Source: Nitrosomonas europaea
GTDB lineage: Bacteria > Pseudomonadota > Gammaproteobacteria > Burkholderiales > Nitrosomonadaceae
Assembly (NCBI RefSeq): GCF_900167395.1
Contig: NZ_FUWK01000031.1
Location: forward strand, 3,594-35,593
Direction of reading: 5' to 3'
Length of the DNA: 32,000 bases
This document shows, in pieces, positions 4,543-26,411 of this stretch. Position 1 is the first letter of the stretch; each line of letters opens with the position of its first letter. Position numbers and translations under genes: made by a program. The notes beneath the pieces were generated by a model. It made no database searches. It was not told the DNA's origin and was given only the letters and a program-made list of their open reading frames with translations.

Positions 4543-4638
4543 CGTTTTCTCCTTTTCTGTGATGCATTGACAGATTCTGCTTACTGGAAGCATTATCATC
4601 GTTGCTTTAACAGGAATAAATATCGTTTTATGGAAATA

Positions 4639-4661
4639 ATTGTTCCTGTATTGGCAACAAT
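4639..4661. promoter_or_regulatory. Putative LysR-type T-N11-A operator in the divergent pirin/LysR intergenic region
   Basis: ATTGTT-N11-AACAAT is a perfect 6-bp dyad with an 11-bp spacer, lying 12 bp upstream of the LysR start. The intergenic region 4543-4672 separates the divergent genes. Confidence 0.5.
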
Positions 4662-4672
4662 TAGGAGGCGTT

Positions 4673-5590
4673 ATGGATCGATTCGAAAATATGAATGCGT
4701 TTGTGCGTGTTGTGGAAACAGGTAGCATCAGTGCGGCTGCCGATCGCATGGATATAGCCAAATCCGTTGTCAGCCGGCGTTTGAAGGAGCTTGAGGAACA
4801 TCTGGGGGTGGAATTGTTTCACCGCACCACGCGGCAAATGAATCTCACCGATAGCGGGCGCGCCTTTTATCAGCAATCCGTGCGCATCCTCGCTGATGTT
4901 CTCGAAGCCGAGCACGCCACGTCGCAGTTTCACGGCAGGTTGAAAGGTCATTTGAAAGTGGCGGTTCCGCTCAGTTTTGGCTTGATGCATCTGGGGGCCG
5001 CCATCTCCACCTTTCTGCAAACTCATCCGGATATCGAATTTGATCTGGATTTCAATGACCGGCAGGTCGATTTGCTGGCGGAAGGTTTTGATCTTGCCAT
5101 CCGCATCGCAAACCTGCCCGATTCCAGCTTGATCGCACGTCGCCTTGCACCTATTCAGGCTGTCATGTGTGCCAGCCCGGCATACCTTGAGCGCATGGGC
5201 ACGCCGCAAGCGCCGGAAGAACTCATCCGGCATCGCTGCCTGGTTTATAACCTGGTCAGTCACAGCGATAACTGGAATGTTTATGGCACCACGGGAGAGT
5301 TGATCAAAACCCGGATCATTCCCTATCTCAAGGCCAGTAACGGGGAATTTCTCCGTGATGCTGCCGTCGATGGTCTGGGTATCGTATTGCTGCCAACTTT
5401 TATCGTTTACCGGGAAATCCAGCGCGGTGCATTGATCCCGATATTGACCGGATACCACTACGCCCAGCTGGCTGCTTATGCCATTTACCCGCAAACCCGC
5501 CACCTCTCGCAGCGGGTTCGGGCATTTGTCGATTTTCTAAGCCAGCGGTTTGAAGGGATGCCTTACTGGGATGCGTGTCTGAATCAATAA
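4673..5590 (+). CDS. LysR family transcriptional regulator
   Basis: N-terminal helix-turn-helix MDRFENMNAFVRVVETGSISAAADRMDIAKSVVSRRLKELEEHLGVELFHRTTRQMNLTDSG plus a LysR substrate-binding domain. Start is the ATG at 4673 after TTAGGAGG. It is divergent from the pirin-doxX pair. Confidence 0.93.
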   Translation: MDRFENMNAFVRVVETGSISAAADRMDIAKSVVSRRLKELEEHLGVELFHRTTRQMNLTDSGRAFYQQSVRILADVLEAEHATSQFHGRLKGHLKVAVPLSFGLMHLGAAISTFLQTHPDIEFDLDFNDRQVDLLAEGFDLAIRIANLPDSSLIARRLAPIQAVMCASPAYLERMGTPQAPEELIRHRCLVYNLVSHSDNWNVYGTTGELIKTRIIPYLKASNGEFLRDAAVDGLGIVLLPTFIVYREIQRGALIPILTGYHYAQLAAYAIYPQTRHLSQRVRAFVDFLSQRFEGMPYWDACLNQ

Positions 5591-6696: not shown

Positions 6697-7440
6697 TCAG
6701 GCCGCAGACCGATTGAGAAAGTCAGTTTCGGAGTTGTGGCAATCACCCCGGGCAAGGGTTTCCACTGCCTTGCCGAAAGTGACCAGATCAGAACGCTCCA
6801 GCATGACGCAGTTTTTGCCGGTACGCTGACAATAGCGTCTGACGGTGAAAAAATCCTCATGATTGATACAGTCAACCGGGCAAATGATGCTGTCTACACG
6901 AGCGAGCAGGGCAAGCAGGCATTCACTGTTATCCTGTGCACCGCCACGAAACACCATGAAATGTCCCCCGGCAGCTTCAATCAACTGATGGTAATTCGGA
7001 TAGAGTGCAGCACGCCCACCGATACACAGGACAGACTGGCCCGCCAGATGATGACTGCTTTTCAGACGATCAATGGCCAGATAAGCATGATATTGATGCG
7101 GCAGGCCTGTTCTGATCCAGCGTAAATCCTCGTCATCAGATACTTGGGGGAGATGTGTGTCAGTACGGCTGTCGATCTGAACTTCAGTGTGAATAGAGTT
7201 TGCAGGTGAACGCCGGGTTGTATTCGCGGAAACAGTACCAGGCAAGGCCATACGGACCAGGTGATAAAGGTGCTTCAGCCGTGATTCCAGCTCTCGCCCC
7301 AGTTTCAGTGTGCGTTGTTTGTAGTGATGGAAAAGCGAATTGCAGAGGATTTCATTCTGATAGATTCCGGACAGTTTACCGGGATGGAGTTGCGCACCCT
7401 GATATGCCGGCTCCAGTACTGTTCTTTGGAAGAATTTCAT
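6697..7440 (-). CDS. DUF2325 domain protein (uncharacterised)
   Basis: The C-terminal about 95 aa (VLCIGGRAALYPNYHQLIEAAGGHFMVFRGG...VDSIICPVDCINHEDFFTVRRYCQRTGKNCVMLERSDLVTFGKAV) matches my memory of the DUF2325 pattern and is paralogous to the C-terminus of 11937..13256. The start is uncertain: ATG 7440 (MKFFQ) or GTG 7503. Confidence 0.7.
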   Translation of the reverse strand: MKFFQRTVLEPAYQGAQLHPGKLSGIYQNEILCNSLFHHYKQRTLKLGRELESRLKHLYHLVRMALPGTVSANTTRRSPANSIHTEVQIDSRTDTHLPQVSDDEDLRWIRTGLPHQYHAYLAIDRLKSSHHLAGQSVLCIGGRAALYPNYHQLIEAAGGHFMVFRGGAQDNSECLLALLARVDSIICPVDCINHEDFFTVRRYCQRTGKNCVMLERSDLVTFGKAVETLARGDCHNSETDFLNRSAA

Positions 7441-7592
7441 GATCGATTCCGTATCAGAAAAAAGGCTGGCTTGCCCGGGAGGAGGGGGCTGGCTTGCCGT
7501 CACAAATCACTGGAAGAGGAGAGAGAACTGCCAGTGATTACCAGGAAAGTTGATGTTTGTCAGCGTGAGAGTACATCATGCAGGTTTACGGA

Positions 7593-7816: not shown

Positions 7817-7835
7817 GAGAATGATTATCATTATA
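7817..7835. promoter_or_regulatory. Fur box upstream of hemP
   Basis: GAGAATGATTATCATTATA matches the classical consensus GATAATGATAATCATTATC at 16 of 19 positions. It lies 27 bp upstream of the hemP start in an AT-rich spacer. Confidence 0.75.
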
Positions 7836-11936: not shown

Positions 11937-13256
11937 TTATGTCGTGGTTTCAACTGTATCGACGGGAGAACTGTTGATACTGGCCTGGCCTGATGTGATT
12001 TTTGTCAGTGCTGCTGCAAAGCTGGAAACACCGGTACCCTTGAACAGCAGGCAGGGTTTATGCCCCAGCCGGCAAAGCCTTTTGACCTGATAGTAAGCGG
12101 CGTGACTGACGTAATCAGTCGGGCAGATCACTGCTGCAGCGCCATAGATCATTTCCGGCAAGCGCGAAAGTGCATCTTCCTGGCCGCCATCATGGTGTGA
12201 TAATTTGAGGCCAAGCTGTCTGGCAAGTGTGCGGTATTGCGGCAGCAGCGTGGACCGGCCGCCTACGCACAGAATGCACTCGTAAGCAGCCATTTTCGTT
12301 TCGGTTGTATCCGCTGTTTCTGTATCTGTGGTGCTGCCAGAATTGAGGGTCAGCAGCAGATTTTCCAGTGTATCCCGCTCGACGCGAAGGGTATCGCGTT
12401 CGTGATAGAGCTCGGTCAGGTTGTGGCAGGCATTTTTGAGTGATTGCTTGAGATCATCGGCCTGTGCTGCTTTGATCTGCAGCTGCTCGTTTTCCACCGT
12501 TAGTTGCATCAGGCGCTGACCCATTCGCAGTATGGCCTGGCCTGATTCCAGTGTTTCCAGCCGTTGGCGGGTGGTCTCGCTTTCTCGCCGGGATTGCTGC
12601 AACTGCTTGATTTCAGCCGCGGCCTGTTGCAGTTGCTGGCGCAGGCGCGATTCGGTCTGTACGTGCTTCTCTCTGATCTGTTCCAGTTGCCCGGCCAGTT
12701 CCTTCAGCATTTGTTCTGCCTGGTTGAGCCGGTGCTGCGTGGCTGACAGCTCGGCAACCGCTTCATGCATGTGCATGTGAACCCTGTCATGGATCTGCTC
12801 TCTGCCTTCGGAGCTGATCCGTTTGTGGGTGAGTGCTGCCCATAATGGACCGGCTATTCTTTCGTTGGTAAAACAGGTTTCCCAAAGCGCCAGCACCTCG
12901 CTGTCGGTTTTGGCGGCGTCGAACTGTTTAATGTGGCTTTCGTACAATCTGTCCAGATATTTATGAATCGTTTCCGATACGACGTTTCTGGAGGTTACGC
13001 GGCAGACTGCTTCAACGTGCAGATCGTGCGCATTGTTTATCGAAGCTTTGAAATGAAAGCGTTTGGCAAAACGCTCGAGATCCGAGGCGGGCAGACAAAG
13101 GCCGATGACAGGACAGTGATAGGTTCTGCTCAGTTCCCAGATTTTTGAACGCTTCACCGGGGGAGAAGGGGAATCGGTTACCATAATCTCGGGCGATCCA
13201 TCTCCTGCTAATAAAGCATCGATTCCCGACTGTCGCAGAATGGCAGGTGCATGCAT
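11937..13256 (-). CDS. DUF2325 domain protein with a long central coiled coil (uncharacterised)
   Basis: Start is the ATG at 13256 after GAGGAGA. The Gln/Leu/Glu-rich region of roughly 160 aa (from about LSATQHRLNQAEQMLKELAGQLEQIREKH... to ...ERDTLENLLLTL) looks like heptad repeats. The C-terminus ILCVGGRSTLLPQYRTLARQLGLKLSHHDGG...AVICPTDYVSHAAYYQVKRLCRLGHKPCLLFKGTGVSSF is a DUF2325-like domain. Confidence 0.75.
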   Translation of the reverse strand: MHAPAILRQSGIDALLAGDGSPEIMVTDSPSPPVKRSKIWELSRTYHCPVIGLCLPASDLERFAKRFHFKASINNAHDLHVEAVCRVTSRNVVSETIHKYLDRLYESHIKQFDAAKTDSEVLALWETCFTNERIAGPLWAALTHKRISSEGREQIHDRVHMHMHEAVAELSATQHRLNQAEQMLKELAGQLEQIREKHVQTESRLRQQLQQAAAEIKQLQQSRRESETTRQRLETLESGQAILRMGQRLMQLTVENEQLQIKAAQADDLKQSLKNACHNLTELYHERDTLRVERDTLENLLLTLNSGSTTDTETADTTETKMAAYECILCVGGRSTLLPQYRTLARQLGLKLSHHDGGQEDALSRLPEMIYGAAAVICPTDYVSHAAYYQVKRLCRLGHKPCLLFKGTGVSSFAAALTKITSGQASINSSPVDTVETTT

Positions 13257-13322
13257 ACGGTATCTCCTCGTGGTGAAAATATCAGTCTGGATCAGACAGA
13301 ATGGATTGCATTTAATACTAAT

Positions 13323-13341
13323 AATAACAATTATCATTAAC
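13323..13341. promoter_or_regulatory. Candidate Fur box upstream of the DUF2325/CbiX-like/heme-receptor gene string
   Basis: AATAACAATTATCATTAAC matches the Fur consensus at 14 of 19 positions. It lies 67 bp upstream of the 13256 start in an AT-rich stretch. Confidence 0.5.
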
Positions 13342-13411
13342 GTAATCAATTGTGTTGTGTATTGCAGCCGATTCTGCATGAATCATGTGGAGCTTCATTT
13401 GTACGGCGAGG

Positions 13412-13457
13412 TGCGACAATTTGTCGCATTTCCATCCTTTTTGGAATCGGTTATTCT
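13412..13457 (+). promoter_or_regulatory. 17-bp palindromic operator plus predicted sigma70 promoter (site A)
   Basis: TGCGACAATTTGTCGCA (13412-13428) is a perfect palindrome. It is followed directly by TTTCCA (-35-like), a 17-nt spacer and TATTCT (-10-like, 13452-13457). The downstream gene starts at 13477. Confidence 0.6.
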
Positions 13458-13476: not shown

Positions 13477-14718
13477 ATGAAGAAGTCGACCTATTCTTTC
13501 CCCACGCTGGCCGGATTCTTTCTCACACTCGCTTCTGTGGTTGCAATCGCAGCCGGGCCAGGTACCGGCGACCCAACTCAGCAACCGTCTGTCATGCAAG
13601 CCTCAAAGTCCCCAAAGACCGCACTTGCGGTGGGAGTAACACTGGATCAGGAAGGGCAGTTGTGGCTGGCAAAAGTGATTGATCAGCGCTTGCTGGTTTC
13701 CAGATCAGAAGACGATGGCAAGCATTTTTCCGAATCAGTGACGGTTACTCCTGTGCCGGAAAACATAGGCAATGATGGCGAAAATCGTCCCAAGATCCAG
13801 GTGGCACGTGATGGCACCGTGCTGGTCACCTGGACGGAGCTGCTGGCGGAAAAATATGCCGGAAATATAAAGTTCTCGCGTTCGACCGATTCAGGTCGGA
13901 CGTTCTCAGAGCCAATCGTTCTGAACGATGATGGCCGTGTGACCAGTCACCGCTTCGATTCCCTGGCAATCGACGGAAAAGGAAGGGTGGTGGTGGCCTG
14001 GCTGGATGCCAGAGATCGTGATGCAGCGAGGGAAAAAGGGGAGGAGTTCAAGGGGGTCTCACTCTACAGCAGTCAGTCGTTCGACAATGGCGCGCACTTT
14101 GAGCCAAACCGGCAAATTCATCAGCATACCTGCGAATGCTGCCGGACTGCGCTTACCTGGACCAGCGAGGGGCCGGTCGTGCTGCTGCGAAATATTTTCG
14201 GCACCAATACCCGTGATTTTGCCGTGGCCAGCCTGGATAAAGTGGAAGAAGGTGTCAGAAGAGTCACCCGCGATGAGTGGCAGATCGACGCCTGCCCGCA
14301 CAACGGTGGCAGTCTTGCGACAGATGGCAGGGGGCAATTGCATCTGACCTGGTTCACCAGCGGCACCGCTGCACAGGGGCAGTTCTATAAACGGATCAGC
14401 GGCAACCAGGAATCGGAACCCATGGCGCTGGGTGATATGGATGCGCAGCCCAACCATGCTGCAGTGGTGGCGCATGGTGAAACCGTCATCCTCACCTGGC
14501 GCGAATTTGACGGAAACGTGTATTCCGCAAAGATGATGTTTTCGAATGACGGTGGCGAAACCTGGAGTGAGCCATGGCGCCTGATGTTGTCTGCCGGCGC
14601 AAACGATTACCCGGTACCACTCATCAGTGACAGTAAAGCTCTGGTTGTATGGAATACCGAAAATGAGGGTTTGCGGGTTTTGTCCGTTGAAAGAGTCATC
14701 AACCGATCCGACGGCTGA
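13477..14718 (+). CDS. Secreted BNR/Asp-box repeat beta-propeller protein (sialidase-fold-like) with a conserved Cys cluster
   Basis: N-terminal signal peptide. Four Asp-box-like repeats: SRSEDDGKHFS, SRSTDSGRTFS, SQSFDNGAHFE and SNDGGETWS. Motifs HTCECCR (14131-14142) and ACPHNGG (14293-14301). Paralogous to 24553..25791. Confidence 0.8.
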   Translation: MKKSTYSFPTLAGFFLTLASVVAIAAGPGTGDPTQQPSVMQASKSPKTALAVGVTLDQEGQLWLAKVIDQRLLVSRSEDDGKHFSESVTVTPVPENIGNDGENRPKIQVARDGTVLVTWTELLAEKYAGNIKFSRSTDSGRTFSEPIVLNDDGRVTSHRFDSLAIDGKGRVVVAWLDARDRDAAREKGEEFKGVSLYSSQSFDNGAHFEPNRQIHQHTCECCRTALTWTSEGPVVLLRNIFGTNTRDFAVASLDKVEEGVRRVTRDEWQIDACPHNGGSLATDGRGQLHLTWFTSGTAAQGQFYKRISGNQESEPMALGDMDAQPNHAAVVAHGETVILTWREFDGNVYSAKMMFSNDGGETWSEPWRLMLSAGANDYPVPLISDSKALVVWNTENEGLRVLSVERVINRSDG

Positions 14719-14826: not shown

Positions 14827-17379
14827 ATGAAGCAGTTCCCTCTGGCACTGATTGGCCTGCTTTGCGCCTCATCAGCCTGGGCAGCTCAAGATGTCGAACA
14901 ACAGAAACAGTTTTCCCGCAAAAATCTTTCAACACAGGCAGACAACAGTTCAGACGGAATCCGGGTATCAGGCGCAAACGGGGAGCACGCAGGGGAGCAG
15001 TTGGCGCAAGCGGCGGACGAACAGGTGCAAACCGGTAAATCGAGCAATAGTGACAACCTGAATGAACAGAAAGAGAAGGATAGTGGTGAGCCGGCTGGCC
15101 AGAATGAAACTGTTTTCAGGGAAATGGTAATTACAGGTGAAATAGAGCGGGATTCGCACTTTACTTCGCCTTCGATGCGCGTAACCCGGGCGCAGGTCGA
15201 ACAGCAGAATGCGCAAACTACCGAAGAAGTGCTCAAATACATGCCCAGCCTGCAAATACGTCAGCGCTACGTGGGCGATCCGAATGGTGTGTTGGGGATT
15301 CGCGGAGCCGATATGTTTTCAACTGCGCGCAGCATGGTTTATGCCGATGGTCTGCCGTTGCACAACTTTCTGCAGGCTTCTTTCAATGGTGCGCCGCGCT
15401 GGTCGCTGGTCGGTCCTAACGAAATCGACTCGGTTGATGTCGTTTATGGCCCTTTCTCGGCCGAGTACAGCGGCAACTCGATAGGGGGCGTTGCCAATAT
15501 CAGAACGCGCATGCCGCACAAGCAGGAATTTTACTTTGAAGGCAGCCTGTTCATTCAGCCCTACAAGAATTACGGGGAGGATAAAGGAACATTCATTGGT
15601 GACCGGCAGTATTTTTCCTACGGCAACAGGATTCAGGACAAGTTTACGGTGTTCCTGGCTTACAACCGGCTGGAGGCTCAGGGTCAGCCAATGTCTTATT
15701 TTATTGATAATACCGGGTTGTCCAACGTGCCTGGAGGAACACCGGTGACGGGGGGTATCAGGACACCGGATACGCGCGGTACACCCAGTATCATTTATGG
15801 TGATACCGGTCCCGAAAAAGTGAATACTCACTTGTTCAAGGGTAAATTCGGGTACGACATCACTTCCGATCTGCAGGCGTTGTTTACCGTGGCGTATGAA
15901 GAGCGTACCCGCAACCAGAACCATCCGAGCAACTACCTGTATACGGCGAACGGGGATTATTTCTGGGGAGGGAATGCGCCTACCTGTAATTCGGTTGCCA
16001 CCTGTTCGACTCCGGGTAATGCTTCTCTGGATGGCACACGCTTCGATGTGGTGCGCAGTGGTTTCGGTGAAAGTCGTGACAAGCGTGAGACGCTGAATCT
16101 GGGTTTGTCGCTGCGCGGTGCGCTGACGCCCGACTGGGATGTCGATACCACATTCAGCTATTTCGATGTGTTGAAGGATATTCGTGCGACGGCGTTTTTC
16201 AATCATGCCGATCCGGGCAATACCGGTGCCGGGCAATTGCAGGATTTCCGCAAATTCAACTGGTGGAATTACGATCTCAAGCTGAGTACGCCCATGCTGC
16301 TGGGTTACGACAAACTGTCGTTTCTGGCCGGATACCATTTTGACCAGTACAACCTCAGTTTCCGGCAATATAGCCTGACCAGTTATGAAGATCTGACCCG
16401 GGGTGCATTGCAGGCCAACCGCAATAATGATGGCCGCACATCGACTCATGCGATCTTTGCCCAATCCATGTTCCGCTTCATGCCGGACTGGGATATTACC
16501 GCCGGTGTGCGTCAGGAATGGTGGGAAGCAAGCAAGGGAGTCGCCTCCAATGTGGCCGTGCCCGATCGCACCGAAACAGCCACTTCTCCGAAGGTTTCAC
16601 TGGGGTATGAGCCTGGACAGTGGAAATTCCGCTATTCCTTCGGGCGTGCGCACCGTTTCCCGGTGATTGCAGAGCTTTTTCAGTCACTTGGTACACCTAC
16701 CAGTATTCTGGTTGCGAATGCGACGCTCAAACCTGAAAATGGCGTGCATCATAATTTTATGATGGAGTACGGGTTACCGAAGGGTTATGTTCGTGTCAAC
16801 GTATTTCGGGATGACATCAAGGACGCCATCCGCCAGATCACTTCCGCCTCGGGAGCACTTACAACCAGCGCTTTCCAGAATATCGGTGAAGTTGGTACAA
16901 CCGGTGTGGAGCTGATCTTCGAACAGCGAAATATTCTGGGCTCACGGTTCGATTTTATGTTCAACGGTACCTGGATGAACTCAAAAGTGGAAGACGGGCC
17001 GGTCGTGAGATTTACCGAATCAACCGGCGTGCCTGCCAACTACAGTCTGACCGGGAAACAGGTCATTCGTCTGCCACACTGGCGAGTCAATGTTTTCGGT
17101 ACTTACCATGTGACGGATGCCTGGGATGTTTCCCTGTCCGGCCGCTATACCAGCGATTCCTATAATGATCCTGATAACAGGGACTATAAGAACAACGTAT
17201 TCGGTGCCCAGAGCGATTTCTTCTTCATGGATTTCAAGACCAGCTACCGGTATCGGTTCAACAACGGGCTGAAAAGCCGATTCTCATTCGGTATCAGCAA
17301 CCTCAACAACGACAAGGCCTGGGTATTTCATCCCTATCCGCAGCGTACCTATCTGCTCGAAGCTGCGTTCAGTTATTGA
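14827..17379 (+). CDS. TonB-dependent outer-membrane receptor with a long low-complexity N-terminal extension
   Basis: Signal peptide MKQFPLALIGLLCASSAWA, about 85 aa of Gln/Glu/Asp/Asn/Ser-rich sequence, then TonB-box-like ETVFREMVITG, a plug (LGIRGADMFSTARSMVYADGLPL) and a C-terminal strand LLEAAFSY. Confidence 0.9.
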   Translation: MKQFPLALIGLLCASSAWAAQDVEQQKQFSRKNLSTQADNSSDGIRVSGANGEHAGEQLAQAADEQVQTGKSSNSDNLNEQKEKDSGEPAGQNETVFREMVITGEIERDSHFTSPSMRVTRAQVEQQNAQTTEEVLKYMPSLQIRQRYVGDPNGVLGIRGADMFSTARSMVYADGLPLHNFLQASFNGAPRWSLVGPNEIDSVDVVYGPFSAEYSGNSIGGVANIRTRMPHKQEFYFEGSLFIQPYKNYGEDKGTFIGDRQYFSYGNRIQDKFTVFLAYNRLEAQGQPMSYFIDNTGLSNVPGGTPVTGGIRTPDTRGTPSIIYGDTGPEKVNTHLFKGKFGYDITSDLQALFTVAYEERTRNQNHPSNYLYTANGDYFWGGNAPTCNSVATCSTPGNASLDGTRFDVVRSGFGESRDKRETLNLGLSLRGALTPDWDVDTTFSYFDVLKDIRATAFFNHADPGNTGAGQLQDFRKFNWWNYDLKLSTPMLLGYDKLSFLAGYHFDQYNLSFRQYSLTSYEDLTRGALQANRNNDGRTSTHAIFAQSMFRFMPDWDITAGVRQEWWEASKGVASNVAVPDRTETATSPKVSLGYEPGQWKFRYSFGRAHRFPVIAELFQSLGTPTSILVANATLKPENGVHHNFMMEYGLPKGYVRVNVFRDDIKDAIRQITSASGALTTSAFQNIGEVGTTGVELIFEQRNILGSRFDFMFNGTWMNSKVEDGPVVRFTESTGVPANYSLTGKQVIRLPHWRVNVFGTYHVTDAWDVSLSGRYTSDSYNDPDNRDYKNNVFGAQSDFFFMDFKTSYRYRFNNGLKSRFSFGISNLNNDKAWVFHPYPQRTYLLEAAFSY

Positions 17380-17591
17380 AGTACAGGTGTTTTTCTGCCC
17401 GATTATGTGATCTGAAACATCAGTAAAAATATCTGCAGAGTGTGCTTACGTAATTGAAGCTACCGAGCTGTTAATGTGGGTTCGGTAGGATGAGGTTAAA
17501 GTATTGTGTTCGTGATGCTATGATGAGCCGACCCGATGCCGAAGAAAACCCCCGAGGTGGCGTCGGGTCTGCTGGTTTCAGGAGGAAACAC

Positions 17592-17870
17592 ATGAATCGC
17601 GATCGGGTTTTGGCAGTATTGCGCCATAGTAAACCTATGTTGGCCAGTCGGTACGGTGTTCGTCGTTTGGCTTTGTTCGGCTCCACAGCACGTGATGACA
17701 GTGATGTTGATGTGCTGATGGTATTCGATGGTGTGGCAAGTGCAGCGCGTTATTTTGGCGTTCAGTTCCACCTGGAAGATGCATTGGGTTGCTCGGTAGA
17801 TTTGGTATCCGAGAAGGCGCTGCGGCCGGAGCTGCGTCCTTTCATCGAAAAAGAAGCGGTTTATGTTTGA
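17592..17870 (+). CDS. Nucleotidyltransferase (MNT) domain protein, antitoxin of a type VII-like HEPN/MNT pair
   Basis: MNRDRVLAVLRHSKPMLASRYGVRRLALFGSTARDDSDVDVLMVF contains the GSxxR...D.D minimal nucleotidyltransferase motif. Start is the ATG at 17592 after CAGGAGGAAACAC. It overlaps the downstream HEPN reading frame by 8 nt. Confidence 0.88.
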   Translation: MNRDRVLAVLRHSKPMLASRYGVRRLALFGSTARDDSDVDVLMVFDGVASAARYFGVQFHLEDALGCSVDLVSEKALRPELRPFIEKEAVYV

Positions 17871-19893: not shown

Positions 19894-19939
19894 TGCGACA
19901 ATTTGTCACATTGTTATGCCCTTTCTCCCGCTTTATGAT
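19894..19939 (+). promoter_or_regulatory. 17-bp palindromic operator plus predicted sigma70 promoter (site B)
   Basis: TGCGACAATTTGTCACA (19894-19910) differs from the perfect palindrome at one position. It is followed directly by TTGTTA (-35), a 17-nt spacer and TATGAT (-10, 19934-19939). Confidence 0.6.
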
Positions 19940-20054
19940 GGGTGCCCTGCAGTAACTGCAATCACTTTAAGGGTTTCATAACAGGGATAAAAACATGAAG
20001 GGAACAAAAAGGTTTGAGCAATCGCGACAACATCTGCTCAAGGCTGGGGATGCC

Positions 20055-22118
20055 ATGATCAGAAAACCGCTGGCGGTTGCGATGGTGGGTGTGCTGGCGG
20101 GCATGACATCGGTATGGGCGCAGGCAGAAAGTAAAAAGGAACCGGTGCAACTGGAAACAATCGAGGTCGTGGCATCCGGGCAGGGGTCGCTTACGGTTCC
20201 AACGCTGGTTGAGGCGCAGCATGAAATGCGCAAAATCCCGGGCGGAGCAAATATCATCGACAGCGAATCTTATGCCAATGGCCGGGGTTCGACACTGCAG
20301 GATGCGCTGGGGTATTCGCCGGGAGTGTTTGTTCAATCCCGTTTCGGTGCCGAGGAAGCGCGTCTGTCAATTCGCGGTTCCGGCATCCAGCGTTTCTTTC
20401 ACTTGCGCGGCATCAAGATTCTGCAGGATGGTTCGCGGGTGAATCTGGCTGATGGTGGCGCGGATTTTCAGGTGATCGAGCCACTGGCAGCACGCTATAT
20501 CGAAGTTTATCGGGGTGCCAATGCATTGCAGTATGGATCGACCACGCTGGGTGGTGCGATCAATTTCGTCACGCCCACCGGCTACGATGCTGAACGTTTC
20601 CGCGCACGTGGTGAGGCAGGCAGCTTTGGTTATAACCGCCTGATGCTTTCTTCCGGTGGTGTGCATGGTTCTCTGGATTATTTTGCCAGTGTTTCCCGCT
20701 ACAGTCAGGATGGTTTCCGTGACTGGTCGGAGCAGGAAAACTGGCGCATGTTCAGCAATGCCGGGTATCGAATCACGCCCGATCTGGAAACCCGTTTTTA
20801 CCTGACCTATACCAAAACCAATTCACAATTGCCAGGCGAGCTGACCAAAGCAGAACTGAAAGACAACCCGAAGCAGGCAAATTTCTTTAACAGCAATATA
20901 GCGCGGTACAAGCGGGATTTTGATTTGATCCGCGTGGCCAATCGTACTGTGATGAAATTGGGTGAGGCCCAGCAACTGGAATTTTCCGCATTCTATGCGC
21001 ATAAAAAAGTATGGCACCCGATTTATGTGGTGATGGAGCAGCCTTCGCATGATTACGGCCTTGGGTTGCGCTATATCAACGAAATGCCGATTGCCGGCTG
21101 GCGTAACCGGTTTGTGGCCGGTTTCGAGCCAAGCTGGGGCAAGGTGATGGATAACCAGTTCGTTAATATCAATGGTGAGGCTGGTCCGCGAATTCACAAA
21201 TATGATCAGGATGTCAGCAGTTATACGGTGTATGGAGAGAATCAGTTTTACCTGCTGCCGGAACTTGCACTGGTGGTGGGTGCCCAGTACACCAACATGA
21301 CACTCAAACAGAAAGATCTGCATACGGGTGATCCGCGGCAGAAGAAAAACTACGAACGCTTCACCCCCAAGGCAGGACTCATCTATGACCTGAATCCGGA
21401 AATTCAATTCTTCACCAACGTCAGTACCAGTTTCGAGCCACCCAGTTTTTCCGAGCTGGCCAGTTGGCAGGCGACACCGGTACTGGCCAGTGCCCAGCGC
21501 GCACTGACCTTCGAAGTGGGAAGCCGGGGCCGTTTTGGTATCGCCGAATGGGATGTTGCATTTTATCGCTCACATGTGCGCAATGAATTGCTTGCCCGCG
21601 TGGATCCAGTGTCCCGTTTCCCGATAGGAATGGTCAATGCGGATAAAACCGTGCATCAGGGAGTGGAATTGGGTCTGGATATGGAACTGGCAAAAATGCT
21701 TTACCTGCGCCAGATGTATACATTCAGCGATTTCAAGTTTGATGGCGACCCGCTTTTCGGAAACAACCAGCTGGCCGGTATTCCGCGCCATTTCTACAAG
21801 GCGGAGCTGCTCTATCGCCATCCTGCCGGCTATTATGCCGGTCCGAACGTGGAATGGTCACCCGAGAAGTATTATGTGGATCATGCCAATACGTTGTCTG
21901 TCGATACCTATGCGCTGCTTGGATTCAAGCTGGGTAAGCGCAACAAAACCGGCTTTTCCTGGTTTGTCGAGGGGCGTAACCTGACTAACCAGAAATATGC
22001 GGCGACGGTTTCCGTAACCGACATCGCGGGGGTTGGTGCCTTTGGTGGCGCAAACTCGGCCTTGTTCTTCCCGGGAGATGGCCGCTCCTTCTTTGCTGGT
22101 CTGGAGTATCGGATGTAG
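20055..22118 (+). CDS. TonB-dependent outer-membrane receptor (paralog B)
   Basis: Signal peptide MIRKPLAVAMVGVLAGMTSVWAQA, TonB-box-like LETIEVVA and a plug (ARLSIRGSGIQRFFHLRGIKILQDG). The ORF is open from ATG 19995, but the first 20 codons are not conserved with paralog C, so I prefer ATG 20055. It ends ...FFAGLEYRM. Confidence 0.88.
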   Translation: MIRKPLAVAMVGVLAGMTSVWAQAESKKEPVQLETIEVVASGQGSLTVPTLVEAQHEMRKIPGGANIIDSESYANGRGSTLQDALGYSPGVFVQSRFGAEEARLSIRGSGIQRFFHLRGIKILQDGSRVNLADGGADFQVIEPLAARYIEVYRGANALQYGSTTLGGAINFVTPTGYDAERFRARGEAGSFGYNRLMLSSGGVHGSLDYFASVSRYSQDGFRDWSEQENWRMFSNAGYRITPDLETRFYLTYTKTNSQLPGELTKAELKDNPKQANFFNSNIARYKRDFDLIRVANRTVMKLGEAQQLEFSAFYAHKKVWHPIYVVMEQPSHDYGLGLRYINEMPIAGWRNRFVAGFEPSWGKVMDNQFVNINGEAGPRIHKYDQDVSSYTVYGENQFYLLPELALVVGAQYTNMTLKQKDLHTGDPRQKKNYERFTPKAGLIYDLNPEIQFFTNVSTSFEPPSFSELASWQATPVLASAQRALTFEVGSRGRFGIAEWDVAFYRSHVRNELLARVDPVSRFPIGMVNADKTVHQGVELGLDMELAKMLYLRQMYTFSDFKFDGDPLFGNNQLAGIPRHFYKAELLYRHPAGYYAGPNVEWSPEKYYVDHANTLSVDTYALLGFKLGKRNKTGFSWFVEGRNLTNQKYAATVSVTDIAGVGAFGGANSALFFPGDGRSFFAGLEYRM

Positions 22119-22138
22119 GCGCATAAAATAGATCAAGG

Positions 22139-22166
22139 CGGCATACCCCGGTAATGAGGTATGCCG
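22139..22166 (+). terminator. Stem-loop after receptor B (possible weak terminator or processing site)
   Basis: CGGCATACC-N10-GGTATGCCG lies 20 bp after the stop. No clear U-tract follows, so its function is uncertain. Confidence 0.35.
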
Positions 22167-22254
22167 GGAAACCGAATAAAATGGTATTCCCTAGCTTTTT
22201 TTGCTGATCCGAATTTCGAATTAACCCGTTAATCCGTTTGTTTTTTCTTCAAGG

Positions 22255-22300
22255 TGCGACAATTTGTCGCATTGTGATGTCATTCTGCCAGGCTTAAGAT
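22255..22300 (+). promoter_or_regulatory. 17-bp palindromic operator plus predicted sigma70 promoter (site C)
   Basis: TGCGACAATTTGTCGCA (22255-22271) is a perfect palindrome identical to site A. It is followed directly by TTGTGA (-35), a 17-nt spacer and TAAGAT (-10, 22295-22300). Confidence 0.6.
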
Positions 22301-22405
22301 TGGCAGCGTGCAGTAATTGCCAATACTAATAATTCCAGAGGGAAGAAAATGAAGGAAAAGAAGGTTAAACAAGCTGGGCTTTATGAGTCATCGGGTGGAG
22401 AAATC

Positions 22406-24475
22406 ATGGCCCGGAAGCCGCTTGTCATTGTGCTGGCAGGTGTATTGGCAGCTATGGCAGCGCCATTGGCGCAAGCTCATGAGGTTGACGAGCCAGTACA
22501 GCTTGAAACAATAAAAGTGACTACATCTAAGGATGATTTACCTCTTACTGTGCCAAGTCTGCCGGAAGTGCAACAGAAAATGCGTCAGATTCCAGGGGGC
22601 GCGAATGTGATTGACAGCGAATCTTATGCTACCGGCCGTGCCTCGACGTTGCAGGATGCATTGGGTTATTCACCGGGTGTGTTTGTTCAACCTCGTTTTG
22701 GTGCTGAAGAAGCACGCCTGTCAATTCGTGGTTCCGGTATTCAGCGTACTTTCCATATGCGCGGTATCAAACTGTTGCAGGATGGCTCCCGGCTGAATCT
22801 GGCCGATGGCGGAGGGGATTTTCAGGCAATCGAGCCGCTGGCCGCACGCTATATCGAGGTATACCGGGGAGGTAATGCGCTGCAGTTTGGATCGACCACA
22901 CTGGGTGGTGCGATCAATTTCGTTACCCCTACCGGTTATGATGCCGAACGTTTCCGTGCGCGTGGTGAGGCAGGCAGTTTTGGTTATAACCGTCTGATGC
23001 TCTCTTCCGGCGGTGTGCATGGCTCGCTGGATTATTTTGCCAGCGTTTCCCGCTACAGCCAGGATGGTTTCCGTGACTGGTCAGAGCAGGAAAACTGGCG
23101 CATGTTCAGTAATGTGGGTTATCGCGTCAACTCCGATCTGGAAACCCGTTTTTATCTCACTTATACCAAAACTGATTCACAATTGCCGGGTAACCTGACC
23201 AAGGCACAGTTGAGAGCCAATCCCAAACAAGCGAATGCGGTTAGTCTGGCTGGTCGGCAGAAGCGGGATTTTGATCTGATCCGGGTGGCCAATCGCACTG
23301 TGCTTAAGCTGGGAAATAGCCAGCAACTGGAATTCTCCGCATTCTATTCACACAAGAAGTTGTGGCATCCGATCTTTCAGGTGCTGGATCAGCCATCGCA
23401 TGATTATGGCCTGGGGTTGCGCTATATAAATGAGATGCCGATTGCTGGCTGGCGCAACCGTTTTGTAGTTGGTTTCGAGCCGAGCTGGGGCACTGTTATG
23501 GATAATCGCTTCTTCAATAATGGTGGTAGAGCGGGTGCACGTACAGCCAAGTTTGATCAGAGTGCCAGCACTTATGACGTTTATGCGGAAGATCAGCTGT
23601 ACGTATTGCCAGAACTGTCACTGGTTGTGGGTGCGCAGTACAGTTATACGACACGTAAACAAAAGGATCTGTTTGGAGCAGGCGCCCAGGATAGAAGCAA
23701 GAACTACCAGCGCTTCACTCCCAAAGCAGGATTGATTTATGAGCTGAATCCGCATATTCAGTTTTTCAGTAACGTCAGTACCAGTTTTGAGCCTCCCAGT
23801 TTTTCCGAACTGACTGCCGGGCCGGTGGTTGCTCCGGTATTTGCAAAAGCTCAACGTGCGATCACATTTGAAGTTGGTAGCCGAGGTCATTTCGGTATAG
23901 CCGAATGGGATGTGGCGCTGTATCGGGCGCATGTACGTAATGAGTTGCTTGCCCGAGTGGATCCTATTACCAGTTCTTCACTGGGTACGGTCAATGCGGA
24001 TAAAACAGTGCATCAGGGGGTTGAACTGGGCCTTGATATCGAGCTGGTGAAAATGTTCTATTTGCGCCAGATGTACCTGTTCAATGATTTCAAATTCGAT
24101 GGGGATGCTTCTTTCGGTAATAATCAGTTAGCCGGCATCCCACGTCATTTCTACAAAGCGGAACTGACTTACCGTCATGCTGATGGATACTACGCCGGTC
24201 CGAATGTAGAATGGTCACCTCAGAAATACTATGTGGACCATGCCAATACGGTATATGCCAATTCCTATGCGCTGCTGGGTTTCAAAATCGGTAAACGGAG
24301 TAAGAGTGGATTTTCCTGGTTTGCAGAGGCACGTAACCTGACTGATCAGAAATACGCAGCTACTACAGGCGTAACAGATGTGGTTAAGTACAATAATGCG
24401 GGTGTTCTTCAGGATCAATTTTTCCTTCCAGGAGATGGACGCTCTTTCTTCGCGGGTCTCGAATATCGGATGTAG
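22406..24475 (+). CDS. TonB-dependent outer-membrane receptor (paralog C)
   Basis: Signal peptide MARKPLVIVLAGVLAAMAAPLAQA and TonB-box-like LETIKVTT. By eye it is highly similar to receptor B over the full length. The ORF is open from ATG 22349, but ATG 22406 (after GGTGGAGAAATC) is preferred by comparison with the paralog. It ends ...FFAGLEYRM. Confidence 0.88.
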   Translation: MARKPLVIVLAGVLAAMAAPLAQAHEVDEPVQLETIKVTTSKDDLPLTVPSLPEVQQKMRQIPGGANVIDSESYATGRASTLQDALGYSPGVFVQPRFGAEEARLSIRGSGIQRTFHMRGIKLLQDGSRLNLADGGGDFQAIEPLAARYIEVYRGGNALQFGSTTLGGAINFVTPTGYDAERFRARGEAGSFGYNRLMLSSGGVHGSLDYFASVSRYSQDGFRDWSEQENWRMFSNVGYRVNSDLETRFYLTYTKTDSQLPGNLTKAQLRANPKQANAVSLAGRQKRDFDLIRVANRTVLKLGNSQQLEFSAFYSHKKLWHPIFQVLDQPSHDYGLGLRYINEMPIAGWRNRFVVGFEPSWGTVMDNRFFNNGGRAGARTAKFDQSASTYDVYAEDQLYVLPELSLVVGAQYSYTTRKQKDLFGAGAQDRSKNYQRFTPKAGLIYELNPHIQFFSNVSTSFEPPSFSELTAGPVVAPVFAKAQRAITFEVGSRGHFGIAEWDVALYRAHVRNELLARVDPITSSSLGTVNADKTVHQGVELGLDIELVKMFYLRQMYLFNDFKFDGDASFGNNQLAGIPRHFYKAELTYRHADGYYAGPNVEWSPQKYYVDHANTVYANSYALLGFKIGKRSKSGFSWFAEARNLTDQKYAATTGVTDVVKYNNAGVLQDQFFLPGDGRSFFAGLEYRM

Positions 24476-24552
24476 AAATAATGATGGGAGTGGTGAGCTC
24501 ATAAACAAGCCATCTTCAGGTTTGATTGGCGATTAATTTCAAGGGATCGACG

Positions 24553-25791
24553 ATGTCAGTAAAACATTTCATTACAGCCGTTTCACTTGCTATGGTTTCC
24601 ACAGTAATTCCCCTGACCGTGACTGCTGAACAACATGCGCATGATGCTAAATCAGCAAAGCCCGGCCATGATATGAATAAAATGTGGGCGGAAATGCGCA
24701 CAAGAGCAGTCGGCATGGCTGTTTCCGTAGCGGCTGATGAAAAAGGGAAATTGTGGCTGGTTCGTATGCAGGATGGCCATATCCGGGTAAGTCATTCGGA
24801 AGATGGCGGCAAGCATTTTTCTGAAGGTGTAACGGTAAACCCGCAACCTGAAGCGATTCTTGCAGAAAACCAGAACCGGCCGAAGATCGCGGTGCGTAAC
24901 GGGGTGATCGCAGTAACCTGGGTACAGGCGCTGCCGAAGGTGTTTGCCGGGAATATCCGCTTTGCCCGTTCTGTCGATGGTGGTCGTACTTTTTCCGAGC
25001 CGGTAACTGTGAACGATGATCAGGGCGAAATCAGCCATGGTTTCAGTGCCTTGACACTGGGTGACAATGGCCGTGTGACATTGACCTGGTTCGACGGGCG
25101 TGAACGTGATGCAGCTGATAAGGGTGGGCAGAAGTATGTTGGCACCACGGTTTACTATGCAACGTCGGAAGACGGCGGAGCGAGTTTTTCTGCGAATCGC
25201 AAGTTGGCTGACCATGCCTGCGAATGCTGCAGAATCGGCATGACGCTCGATTCTGATGGGGTACCGGTTGTGTTCTGGCGGCATGTGTTCGAGGGCAGCA
25301 TGCGTGATTTCGCGCTGGCACGGCTGGATTCGCAACCCAAGGTGTTGCGGGCCAGTGAGGATGGTTGGGAAATCAATGCCTGTCCTCATCATGGCGGCGA
25401 CATTGCAGTGGATGAAGCCGGTAGCCGCCATCTGGCGTGGTTTACCGGGAATCCGCAGAATCCCGGATTGTTTTACCGGCGTGCTGACGGTGAGAATATG
25501 ACCGCACCGCACGCATTTGGTGACCTTGATTTTCAGCCGGGTTACCCAGCTGTATTTGCGTATGGAAAGAAGGTTTATCTGGTCTGGCGCGAATTTGATG
25601 GCAATAATTATCAATTGATGGCCTCCGTTTCGGCTGATCGTGGCGATACCTGGTCAGCAGCTCGTGCTGTGGCAACGACCGGTGGTGCAGCCGACCTGCC
25701 AGTATTTGTAGTCGGTGCACAGAAACCACTCGTCGTGTGGAACAGTGCCAGAGATGGAGTGCGCTTCTTTAATGCAGAGGGGGATTTATGA
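24553..25791 (+). CDS. Secreted BNR/Asp-box repeat beta-propeller protein with a conserved Cys cluster (paralog of 13477..14718)
   Basis: Start is the ATG at 24553 after AAGGGA. It has a signal peptide. Asp-boxes are SHSEDGGKHFS, ARSVDGGRTFS, TSEDGGASFS and SADRGDTWS. Motifs are HACECCR (25218-25229) and ACPHHGG (25381-25389). Roughly half its residues match the 13477 protein by eye. Confidence 0.8.
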   Translation: MSVKHFITAVSLAMVSTVIPLTVTAEQHAHDAKSAKPGHDMNKMWAEMRTRAVGMAVSVAADEKGKLWLVRMQDGHIRVSHSEDGGKHFSEGVTVNPQPEAILAENQNRPKIAVRNGVIAVTWVQALPKVFAGNIRFARSVDGGRTFSEPVTVNDDQGEISHGFSALTLGDNGRVTLTWFDGRERDAADKGGQKYVGTTVYYATSEDGGASFSANRKLADHACECCRIGMTLDSDGVPVVFWRHVFEGSMRDFALARLDSQPKVLRASEDGWEINACPHHGGDIAVDEAGSRHLAWFTGNPQNPGLFYRRADGENMTAPHAFGDLDFQPGYPAVFAYGKKVYLVWREFDGNNYQLMASVSADRGDTWSAARAVATTGGAADLPVFVVGAQKPLVVWNSARDGVRFFNAEGDL

Positions 25792-26285
25792 TGCGTCGTT
25801 TACTGTTTATCTGGCTGTTGACGATAGCCGGGGTTGCATCGGCGACCGAGGGTGTACGTCCGTTTGTACTCGGAAGTATGACGCAGATTCAGGAAGAGCA
25901 TGCAGGCAAACCTTTCGTACTGTTTCTCTGGTCGCTGACATGTACTTACTGTCCAACTGAACTGAAAATGCTTGGTGAATTCAAGCAGCAGCATCCTGAT
26001 CTGAATCTGGTGCTGATTGCGGCGGATACGCCGGATGATGAGCCGGAGATCGTTTCTCATCTTGCTGATTACGGGTTGAACAAGGTCGAGCGGTGGGTGT
26101 TTGCCGAGGATATGCCGGAACGCCTGCGTTTTGAGATCGACCGGCGCTGGTATGGCGAGGTGCCGCGCACCTATTTTTATGATCAGAGCCATCAGCGTGA
26201 AGCCAAGACCGGGCTGGTCGGCCAGGAATATGTCAAGAGTTGGCTGGCGCGTGTCGGTATGGATGCTTCGTCCGCAAGCAAGTGA
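25788..26285 (+). CDS. Periplasmic thioredoxin-fold protein (TlpA/ResA/DsbE-like thiol:disulfide oxidoreductase)
   Basis: Signal peptide MMRRLLFIWLLTIAGVASA. CxxC active site in a typical context (PFVLFLWSLTCTYCPTELKML). The start overlaps the BNR gene stop (ATGA at 25788-25791), which suggests translational coupling. Confidence 0.8.
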   Translation: MMRRLLFIWLLTIAGVASATEGVRPFVLGSMTQIQEEHAGKPFVLFLWSLTCTYCPTELKMLGEFKQQHPDLNLVLIAADTPDDEPEIVSHLADYGLNKVERWVFAEDMPERLRFEIDRRWYGEVPRTYFYDQSHQREAKTGLVGQEYVKSWLARVGMDASSASK

Positions 26286-26369
26286 CCTTCCAGATTTCCT
26301 CTGAAAATAATACGTTTCCACACTTTTTCAGGCAGATCGAACACTCGTTCAGGCTGATCTGCCTTCACT

Positions 26370-26411
26370 CAGCCGGTGGATAAAGAGTATCTCCGGCTGA
26401 TTTATCTTTTT
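26370..26411 (+). terminator. Rho-independent terminator after the receptor C / BNR / thioredoxin operon
   Basis: CAGCCGG-N16-CCGGCTG is followed by ATTTATCTTTTT. A second hairpin (GGCAGATC...GATCTGCC, about 26330-26362) lies just upstream. Confidence 0.6.

Follow-up and report, generated by a model that had tools for sequence, protein, structure and literature searches.

Several proteobacterial systems that handle metals or redox cofactors outside the cytoplasm have been described. TlpA, ScoI and PcuC (a PCuAC protein) traffic copper to CuA in Bradyrhizobium and its relatives. The copper-starvation operon of Bradyrhizobium japonicum is pcuABCDE, and OprC and NosA are TonB-dependent copper receptors. 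AztD is a periplasmic beta-propeller zinc metallochaperone with His and Asp ligands, which partners the binding protein of an ABC transporter and works without a thioredoxin. In Escherichia coli, the gene for the periplasmic propeller YncE adjoins pqqU (yncD), which encodes a TonB-dependent receptor (TBDR). In Gram-negative bacteria, little is understood of how copper passes across the outer membrane to the cuproenzymes of periplasm and membranes, and the question matters most in organisms that carry out nitrification, denitrification (N2O reduction), or iron or sulfur oxidation. Here we describe a stretch of 32,000 nucleotides (nt) of Nitrosomonas europaea (contig NZ_FUWK01000031.1, positions 3,594 to 35,593; hereafter the window) in which a TBDR, a four-cysteine beta-propeller and a thioredoxin-fold protein are encoded in one operon. 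The receptor-propeller-thioredoxin trio is a real, widespread and conserved functional unit. It is apparently undescribed so far: we looked in the literature for such a module, for its Nitrosomonas genes (locus tags NE1529-NE1543) and for their iron response, and found nothing on it. What is new here is an uncharacterised propeller family; TonB-dependent metal uptake and TlpA-Sco-PCuAC copper trafficking are known kinds of system.

The module in the window consists of the following features:

22406-24475, plus strand: TBDR2, a YncD/PqqU-like TonB-dependent receptor (Pfam Plug and barrel)
24553-25791, plus strand: BNR1, a periplasmic BNR/Asp-box beta-propeller of 412 amino acids (aa; Pfam BNR_2)
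25219-25230 and 25381-25392, plus strand: the cysteine motifs CECC and CPHH of BNR1
25788-26285, plus strand: a TlpA/ResA/CcmG-like thiol:disulfide oxidoreductase of 165 aa with a WSxxCxxC motif
26370-26399, plus strand: stem of a terminator-like hairpin (CAGCCGG...CCGGCUG), with a U-rich tract running to 26411

This layout had been proposed in an original prediction made from the letters of the stretch, and its coordinates, gene overlap and terminator all hold. TBDR2 has an alternative in-frame start (ATG at 22349), and 77 nt separate it from BNR1. The ATG of the thioredoxin-fold gene overlaps the TGA of BNR1 as ATGA at 25788, by which the two genes, judged from the sequence, are translationally coupled. 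The terminator region folds better than 200 of 200 shuffled versions (z = -4.4). As also predicted, no gene for an ABC transporter, PepSY protein, FecIR pair or binding protein occurs among the open reading frames (ORFs) of at least 150 aa in the window, and an Rfam scan of the window for riboswitches returned no match.

The module recurs across many lineages. A scan of one genome per species recovered the propeller in at least 576 species-representative genomes, and we analysed 80 related loci. The closest genomes are those of Nitrosomonas (77-82% identity). Hosts also include Nitrosospira, Gallionella, Sideroxydans, Ferrigenium, Thiobacillus, Sulfuricella and Nitrotoga, as well as Dechloromonas, Azonexus, Azospira, Methylobacillus, Denitromonas, several gammaproteobacterial metagenome-assembled genomes (MAGs) and one member of the Nitrospiria. 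The thioredoxin gene lies directly after the propeller gene in 71 of the 77 loci with room for it; propeller stop and thioredoxin start overlap by 4 nt in 61 of these 71, and the two genes overlap or abut in 68. A TBDR adjoins the propeller in at least 50 of 54 loci, and in the four apparent exceptions the receptor is at most 4 kb away or ORF calling has produced an artefact. Linkage to TBDR and thioredoxin genes is thus very strongly enriched among propeller homologs in this neighbourhood survey, and the trio, first put forward as a candidate, stands as a conserved unit. A TonB gene follows the thioredoxin gene in 42 of the 80 loci, with ExbB in 32 and ExbD in 33; no inner-membrane transporter is linked to the module in any locus examined.

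Natural fusions join the two periplasmic partners. Twenty-two of the best 150 family representatives are propeller::thioredoxin fusions of 510-650 aa, in which the thioredoxin domain comes directly after the propeller, lacks a signal peptide of its own and keeps its CxxC intact. One fusion protein is encoded identically in two independent assemblies, so the fusions are not frameshift artefacts. As Rosetta-stone evidence, they argue that propeller and thioredoxin act together in the periplasm. The predicted redox coupling of the propeller cysteines to the thioredoxin is strongly backed by these fusions.

The stand-alone thioredoxin has a hydrophobic N-terminus ending in ASA, which reads as an export signal. 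Its WSxxCxxC motif (CxxC is CTYC, at 25941-25952) is at least 90% conserved among 73 thioredoxin sequences and invariant in the A2 set, and NCBI names its relatives 'TlpA family protein disulfide reductase'. At the sequence level the protein is distant from described families (best PDB E 8e-4; Pfam AhpC-TSA 26.4 bits against 26). The top fold neighbours of its predicted model (predicted local distance difference test, pLDDT, 79.6) are DsbF, MPT53, ResA, CcmG and TlpA, which are the reducing extracytoplasmic branch of the thioredoxin fold; the best Foldseek matches are 3ios, 1lu4, 2f9s and 1kng. The fold matches also include PDB 4txv, a TlpA-CoxB mixed disulfide. The protein therefore resembles CcmG, ResA, DsbE and DsbF in its fold and its WxxCxxC-type site, but it is distant from them in sequence, and its putative client is a propeller rather than apocytochrome c. 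An assignment of the gene to SCO1/SenC was rejected: it encodes CxxC rather than CxxxC, and the SCO1 structure 4hde is only 21st in the fold ranking.

The propeller carries database names such as 'sialidase family protein', 'exo-alpha-sialidase' and 'hypothetical'. With these names, and with 'TlpA family protein' for its partner, the module is invisible in functional surveys. In a profile search of 1.84 billion representatives, 25,948 proteins match at E ≤1e-3 and 1,097 at ≤1e-30. BNR1 begins with a Sec-type signal peptide; across the family a Tat-like RRxFL N-terminus occurs in only three of 120 propellers, and N-termini are in general Sec-like. Each of the 200 propellers examined contains CxCC and CPH, mostly 52-54 residues apart, and in 117 of 120 the mature protein has exactly four cysteines. 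The cysteines are therefore conserved across the family, as the original prediction required, and the invariant residues of BNR1 include C223, C225, C226, C277, P278 and H279. The Pfam BNR_2 match of BNR1 (45 bits; cut-off 31.4) spans residues 10-183 only. The translation contains four Asp-boxes (SxDxGxTW), with S82, D84, G86, S140, D142 and G144 invariant; Asp-box repeats are common to many non-enzymes. Y308, E347 and D270 are likewise invariant, as are several Arg, Asp and Glu residues; Y308, E347 and D270 are of the residue types that GH33 sialidases use as Tyr/Glu nucleophile pair and Asp acid/base.

The AlphaFold2 model of BNR1 is a propeller (pLDDT 87.6; predicted template modelling score 0.86). 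The PDB structures nearest to it in fold are six- and seven-bladed propellers of a generic kind (lectins, GH145, PL25, PL42 and GH33-like), with template modelling (TM) scores of 0.45-0.59 and 10-15% identity. Six conserved elements follow one another in the strand order of the model: R109, H162, C223-E-C-C-R227, D270/W272/C277-P-H-H280, Q328 and D381. Each sits in a loop that connects a blade's outer strand with the inner strand of the blade after it. Propeller active sites usually lie on the top face around the axis, and the topology of the model suggests that the six elements gather there in one pocket. AztD is a periplasmic propeller that hands over metal in an uptake system, a role proposed for the module's propeller too; the latter belongs to another family, and AztD is outside the top 50 fold matches of BNR1.

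Two possible assignments of the propeller were rejected. The GH33 sialidase or exo-alpha-sialidase label does not fit: [F/Y]RIP, which carries the first arginine of the sialidase catalytic Arg triad, is absent (the pattern [FYW]R[IV]P occurs in 0 of 120 propellers), solved sialidases match the family profile at a best E of 2.3e-4 over ~100 residues on the Asp-box blades only, and no NCBIfam glycosidase or sialidase model passes for the propeller. Membership of a characterised glycosidase family, which would have counted against the original prediction, gained no support from these searches. Homology to E. coli YncE was also dismissed (hhalign probability 0.1).

The families encoded next to the module point to copper. 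In the two fusion contigs that extend past the receptor, the gene row is PCuAC - receptor - propeller::thioredoxin - ExbB - ExbD, followed by TonB in L085; a third fusion contig, L088, ends within the receptor gene. PCuAC homologs lie within 10 kb of the module in eight of 80 loci. Their position fits the gene row in L038, L056, L057, L058 and L062, and called genes confirm the row in L062/L089. All ten PCuAC sequences contain an intact H-X10-M-X21-H-X-M, the Cu(I) site of PCuAC. SCO1/SenC is encoded near the module in four of 80 loci. In Azospira, the module sits between nirS and a PCuAC-SCO1-nosZ group, and in Ca. Nitricoxidireducens between a SCO1 cluster and a heme-copper oxidase gene; NosZ is near the module in L090, and heme-copper oxidase subunit I in L091. 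Copper is thus the best-supported cargo. The original prediction had offered copper or zinc as speculation, and of the two only copper gained evidence.

A second gene row, receptor - DUF4198 - Fer4_5 (NapH/CcoG-like ferredoxin) - DsbD_TM, occurs within 7 kb of the module in eight of 80 loci (L007, L013, L015, L023, L027, L035, L047 and L070), and in at least L015, L023 and L035 it adjoins the module on the upstream side. The palindromic box described below stands just before the receptor of this row in five of the eight. The DsbD-type row could plausibly serve as an electron conduit. In L070 the row begins with a DUF2946 gene. Separately, one Burkholderiaceae MAG (L092, 2464-4999) has a bufferin-type cluster for a ribosomally synthesised and post-translationally modified peptide (BufA1, MbnB/DUF692, HvfC, DoxX) 2.5 kb from the module. 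Bufferin-type clusters are linked to copper binding; this is a single case and possibly coincidental.

The module's likeness to TlpA-ScoI-PcuC lies in its chemistry and its gene row: there, a TlpA-type CxxC reductase keeps the metal-binding cysteines of its partner reduced, and PCuAC, a Cu(I) chaperone, is part of the module's gene row in some genomes. In contrast to that system, the thiol partner here is a CxCC...CPHH beta-propeller rather than a thioredoxin-fold Sco protein with CxxxC...H, and the pair is tied to a TBDR and TonB-ExbBD and is often fused.

The receptor is the variable part of the module. The window encodes a second propeller pair and a paralog of TBDR2:

20055-22118, plus strand: TBDR1, a paralog in tandem with TBDR2 (77% identical) that has a box and promoter of its own
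13477-14718, plus strand: BNR2, a second Cys4 propeller, 46% identical to BNR1, with CECCR and ACPH kept
14827-17379, plus strand: TBDR4, the receptor paired with BNR2, of the type that accompanies the propeller family in most genomes

Plug and barrel domains (PF07715 and PF00593) are present in TBDR1, TBDR2, TBDR3 and TBDR4. Of 63 propeller-adjacent receptors, 57 fall into one broad family that includes TBDR4, and the YncD/PqqU-like type of TBDR1 and TBDR2 accounts for only five; the TBDR2 operon is therefore a less typical pairing. The originally proposed operon is real, but its receptor is an atypical partner, and the upstream TBDR1, the second propeller pair, the linkage to TonB-ExbBD and the nature of the palindrome had been missed. 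TBDR2 matches PDB 6v81 and 9c4o at E ~1e-39 and is 25% identical to E. coli PqqU, while the NCBIfam PqqU model gives TBDR1 and TBDR2 154-155 bits, far below its cut-off of 1200. The locus thus resembles E. coli pqqU (yncD)-yncE in that a YncD-type TBDR gene stands beside a periplasmic propeller gene, yet the propellers are non-homologous, the E. coli locus has no thioredoxin, and most partner receptors of the module are of another type. Like pcuABCDE, the module can encode a TBDR together with PCuAC, which in that system serves copper supply to oxidases. Unlike OprC and NosA, its receptors miss the TonB-copper model (TIGR01778; 26-33 bits against a cut-off of 472) and have no conserved Cys/Met/His site, and the propeller and thioredoxin are additional. 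We also observe that the YncD/PqqU-like receptor is tandemly duplicated over 19995-24475 of the window, each copy with its own box, -35 and -10 elements, and that the close relatives L001 and L082 have a single copy.

The operon and its neighbours share a palindromic box placed directly before a weak promoter:

22256-22270: box C, an exact palindrome GCGAC-AATTT-GTCGC (15-mer GCGACAATTTGTCGC), upstream of TBDR2
22272-22277 and 22295-22300, plus strand: -35 (TTGTGA) and -10 (TAAGAT) of the TBDR2-propeller-thioredoxin promoter, with a 17-nt spacer
19895-19909, plus strand: box B, one mismatch, before TBDR1, with -35 TTGTTA (19911-19916) and -10 TATGAT (19934-19939)
13413-13427, plus strand: box A, exact, towards BNR2, with -35 TTTCCA (13429-13434) and -10 TATTCT (13452-13457)

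Matches within the window alone number four against about two expected, which is not significant. Allowing up to two mismatches, 95 sites occur in 81 sequences (1.27 Mb) against about four expected; 46 of 77 loci have such a box ahead of the module, compared with 3% of random segments. Forty-seven aligned promoters share one architecture: box, 1 nt, a -35-like TTsnCA, 17 nt and a conserved TAnnaT, the last at a fixed 24 nt after the box. From this fixed arrangement, the box is centred near -44 and abuts the weak -35, a position that seems to suit an activator site and not an operator within the spacer. Before some receptors in five loci, two or three copies abut with a 15-bp period (L009 4686-4715, L013 12042-12086, L024 8038-8067, L035 1794-1823 and L042 14473-14502), an arrangement that suggests cooperative or multimeric binding. 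The palindrome was considered as a Fur box and rejected: the best match to the Fur consensus GATAATGATAATCATTATC upstream of TBDR1 and TBDR2 has 7-8 mismatches, and canonical Fur boxes upstream of the module follow the background distribution across 77 loci.

The box is probably a site for a response regulator of the RegA/PrrA type. The RegA/PrrA consensus is YSCGGS-N(0-10)-GWCRM (PMC5435760), and a RegA-type site has been described as a 'degenerate GCG inverted repeat' (PMC4263372). TGCGAC-AATTT-GTCGC agrees with this consensus at 10 of 11 specified positions, and GCGGC variants match it at all. A kinase and a REC+HTH_8 regulator (...MHRRTLQRKL) adjoin the module in seven of 80 loci; in all four that were checked, the intergenic region separating regulator from module contains the box. 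Three of four RegB-like kinases checked contain GGxxNPF, the RegB quinone motif (PMC8191878). The module's box and adjacent regulators thus recall RegB/RegA (PrrB/PrrA, RoxS/RoxR, ActS/ActR), although compared with described sites the box is unusually well conserved and has a fixed position abutting the -35. The signals for RegBA, PrrBA and RoxSR are the quinone pool and the flow of electrons through the cbb3 oxidase, and the Sco homolog senC sits in the Rhodobacter reg operon; for both reasons, a RegA-type activator before a copper-supply module would make physiological sense. We found no TBDR described in the literature as a member of a RegA regulon. None of ten other box-associated receptors passes any NCBIfam cut-off, and the other genes adjacent to boxes (helicase, Sel1, RTX, RIO kinase) are uninformative on the regulator.

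We tentatively read the module as a redox-regulated system for copper acquisition or hand-over, likely for cuproenzymes, and give this reading slightly less than an even chance. From the features above we infer the cargo, the direction of the thiol chemistry, the identity of the regulator and the source of electrons as follows. The receptor, energised by TonB-ExbB-ExbD, would bring its cargo into the periplasm. There the Sec-exported, seven-bladed-like propeller would present a pocket of four cysteines (CxCC, CPHH) with His, Arg and Asp, and it may accept, reduce or only bind the cargo. A TlpA/ResA/CcmG-type thioredoxin would keep the propeller thiols reduced in the oxidising periplasm, or recycle them, drawing its electrons presumably through a DsbD/CcdA-type membrane protein. 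Either the propeller would bind copper as Cu(I), or it would reduce Cu(II) and release the resulting Cu(I), and in some genomes the PCuAC chaperone from the same gene row would carry the metal onward. The weak sigma-70 promoter and the GCGAC-N5-GTCGC box, read by a RegA/PrrA/RoxR-type regulator, would couple expression to respiratory-chain status. A more specific form of this proposal seems doubtful as a whole, though worth stating: propeller and thioredoxin would be a thiol-driven periplasmic metal reductase and chaperone for the receptor's cargo, powered from the cytoplasm through a DsbD/CcdA-type conduit and switched on by a RegBA-type sensor when the respiratory chain signals too few working heme-copper oxidases. 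Nitrifiers, denitrifiers, and iron and sulfur oxidisers would then possess an unrecognised copper route to ammonia monooxygenase, NirK, NosZ and terminal oxidases. If the copper reading in its general form is right, the propellers are a protein family new to science that carries a Cys4/His site, the fusions identify the reductase dedicated to it, and metal uptake is linked through regulation to respiratory status.

Several observations weigh against copper as the cargo and against details of this mechanism. Among 58 propeller-adjacent receptors, no Cys, His or Met is conserved at ≥70% and there is no OprC-like copper site; receptors beside the propeller, moreover, come from two or three TBDR families at the least. 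Met, the usual periplasmic Cu(I) ligand, is not conserved in the propeller pocket, and neither receptor nor propeller shows Met-rich or OprC-like features. That both Cys loops form one site is suggested by strand topology, not by model coordinates. Only ~10-20% of loci have PCuAC or SCO1 close by, and the window is not among them; here the module instead lies beside a Fur-controlled heme-uptake island. Some propeller-receptor pairs have no adjacent thioredoxin gene (BNR2 here, and Nitrosospira MAG loci), and Nitrosospira multiformis ATCC 25196 encodes a thioredoxin homolog with TonB-ExbB-ExbD and without propeller or receptor (L093, 10001-12458); the parts of the module are apparently able to function in trans. 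The consensus for RegA is loose and degenerate, and the window contains no RegBA pair.

The main rival, which we consider unlikely, takes iron as the cargo. A ferric chelate would be imported, propeller dithiols recharged by the thioredoxin would reduce Fe(III), and Fe(II) would enter by a general inner-membrane carrier. Such a carrier would explain the missing ABC and binding-protein genes, and no locus has a linked inner-membrane transporter. The receptor varies while propeller and thioredoxin are conserved, as would be expected of a release step that is generic. The module here adjoins a heme/iron island with a TIGR01785 receptor, a HemP-like ORF and Fur boxes, and its receptors weakly resemble siderophore and heme receptor families. 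Yet in the 77 loci canonical Fur boxes are absent or at background level, which would not be usual for iron receptors of proteobacteria; copper chaperones (PCuAC and SCO1), and not iron genes, recur as neighbours; and the regulator of the box differs from that of the adjacent heme genes. Were the cargo iron, the module would explain TonB-dependent uptake without a cognate ABC importer. It is quite improbable that propeller and thioredoxin are instead a general thiol-redox or quality-control pair of the envelope, serving TonB-dependent transport by repair or receptor folding without a metal cargo. The N. multiformis thioredoxin with its TonB-ExbB-ExbD, the several families of partner receptors and the putatively redox-sensing regulator would all accord with such a role. 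Against it, the receptors have no conserved cysteines to repair, the conserved Cys/His/Arg/Asp set of the putative pocket is typical of a ligand or active site, and the linkage to PCuAC and SCO1 would be left unexplained.

Two further readings concern organic cargo. The propeller could be a true glycosidase, lyase or sialidase-like enzyme of carbohydrate or organic-substrate uptake, as in the TBDR-plus-sialidase loci of Bacteroidota and Xanthomonas, which we regard as very improbable. The above-cut-off BNR_2 match with four Asp-boxes, the GH33-like, GH145, PL25 and PL42 propellers among the best fold matches, and the invariant Arg, Asp and Glu residues would suit an enzyme. The missing [FY]RIP motif, sialidase similarity confined to Asp-box blades at E ≥2e-4, low TM scores and identities, and failure of every NCBIfam glycosidase model do not; nor do those enzyme families have anything that corresponds to a thioredoxin as obligatory or fused partner, or to the four cysteines kept throughout this family, and many host genera are chemolithoautotrophs (Nitrosomonas, Gallionella, Thiobacillus, Nitrotoga). 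Least probable of all is uptake of an organic redox cofactor such as pyrroloquinoline quinone (PQQ), with the propeller as a periplasmic apo-protein or carrier by analogy with pqqU(yncD)-yncE. TBDR1 and TBDR2 are indeed closest to YncD/PqqU, and yncE does adjoin pqqU in E. coli; however, receptors of this type are the rare exception beside the propeller (5/63), the 155 bits they reach are far from the PqqU cut-off, and the propeller is unrelated to YncE.

The heme island next to the module is under different control:

13379 to 5600, minus strand: heme island
11937-13379 and 6697-7503, minus strand: two Cys/His-rich DUF2325 proteins
7789 to 7595, minus strand: HemP-like ORF preceded by a canonical Fur box
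7817-7835: Fur box with two mismatches, overlapping the TATAAT before the HemP-like ORF
13323-13341: weaker Fur-like array with four mismatches, ~65 nt before the probable DUF2325 start

Because of the boxes at 7817-7835 and 13323-13341, the island appears to be Fur-type regulated and the neighbouring propeller modules not. It encodes a DUF2325 protein (probable true start near 13256), a CbiX-like protein, a heme/hemoglobin receptor (550 bits to TIGR01785, whose cut-off is 317), the HemP-like ORF, a second DUF2325 protein and a two-domain multicopper oxidase, and is the counterpart of the N. europaea operon NE1538-NE1543 (PMC10781756). Co-regulation of the heme receptor operon by box A at 13413 was considered and rejected: the operon has its own Fur-like box at 13323-13341, the -35 and -10 elements that follow box A read towards BNR2, and in other genomes the module shows no enrichment of Fur boxes upstream. 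The CbiX/ferrochelatase-like protein has a signal peptide and a His-rich loop (HIHDNNSGHGSHGGHGGH), and the island contains no inner-membrane heme transporter; a chelatase-like periplasmic protein beside a heme receptor hints at extraction of iron from heme in the periplasm. The DUF2325 protein Cj1384c of Campylobacter jejuni is PerR-regulated and cysteine-rich, and adjoins catalase and its heme-trafficking protein (PMC9426514). By analogy, this suggests a role of DUF2325 in heme or redox biology; we found no further literature on DUF2325 beyond Cj1384c.

Two further observations concern other parts of the window. A small ORF between TBDR4 and an M18 aminopeptidase gene (17490-17870) resembles, by eye only, an MNT-type nucleotidyltransferase antitoxin, and it breaks a region that is otherwise syntenic in L001-L003. 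At 3676-5590, and unrelated to the module, a pirin gene (minus strand) adjoins a LysR-like regulator ORF (4640-5590, plus strand) that starts with a typical LysR helix-turn-helix sequence.

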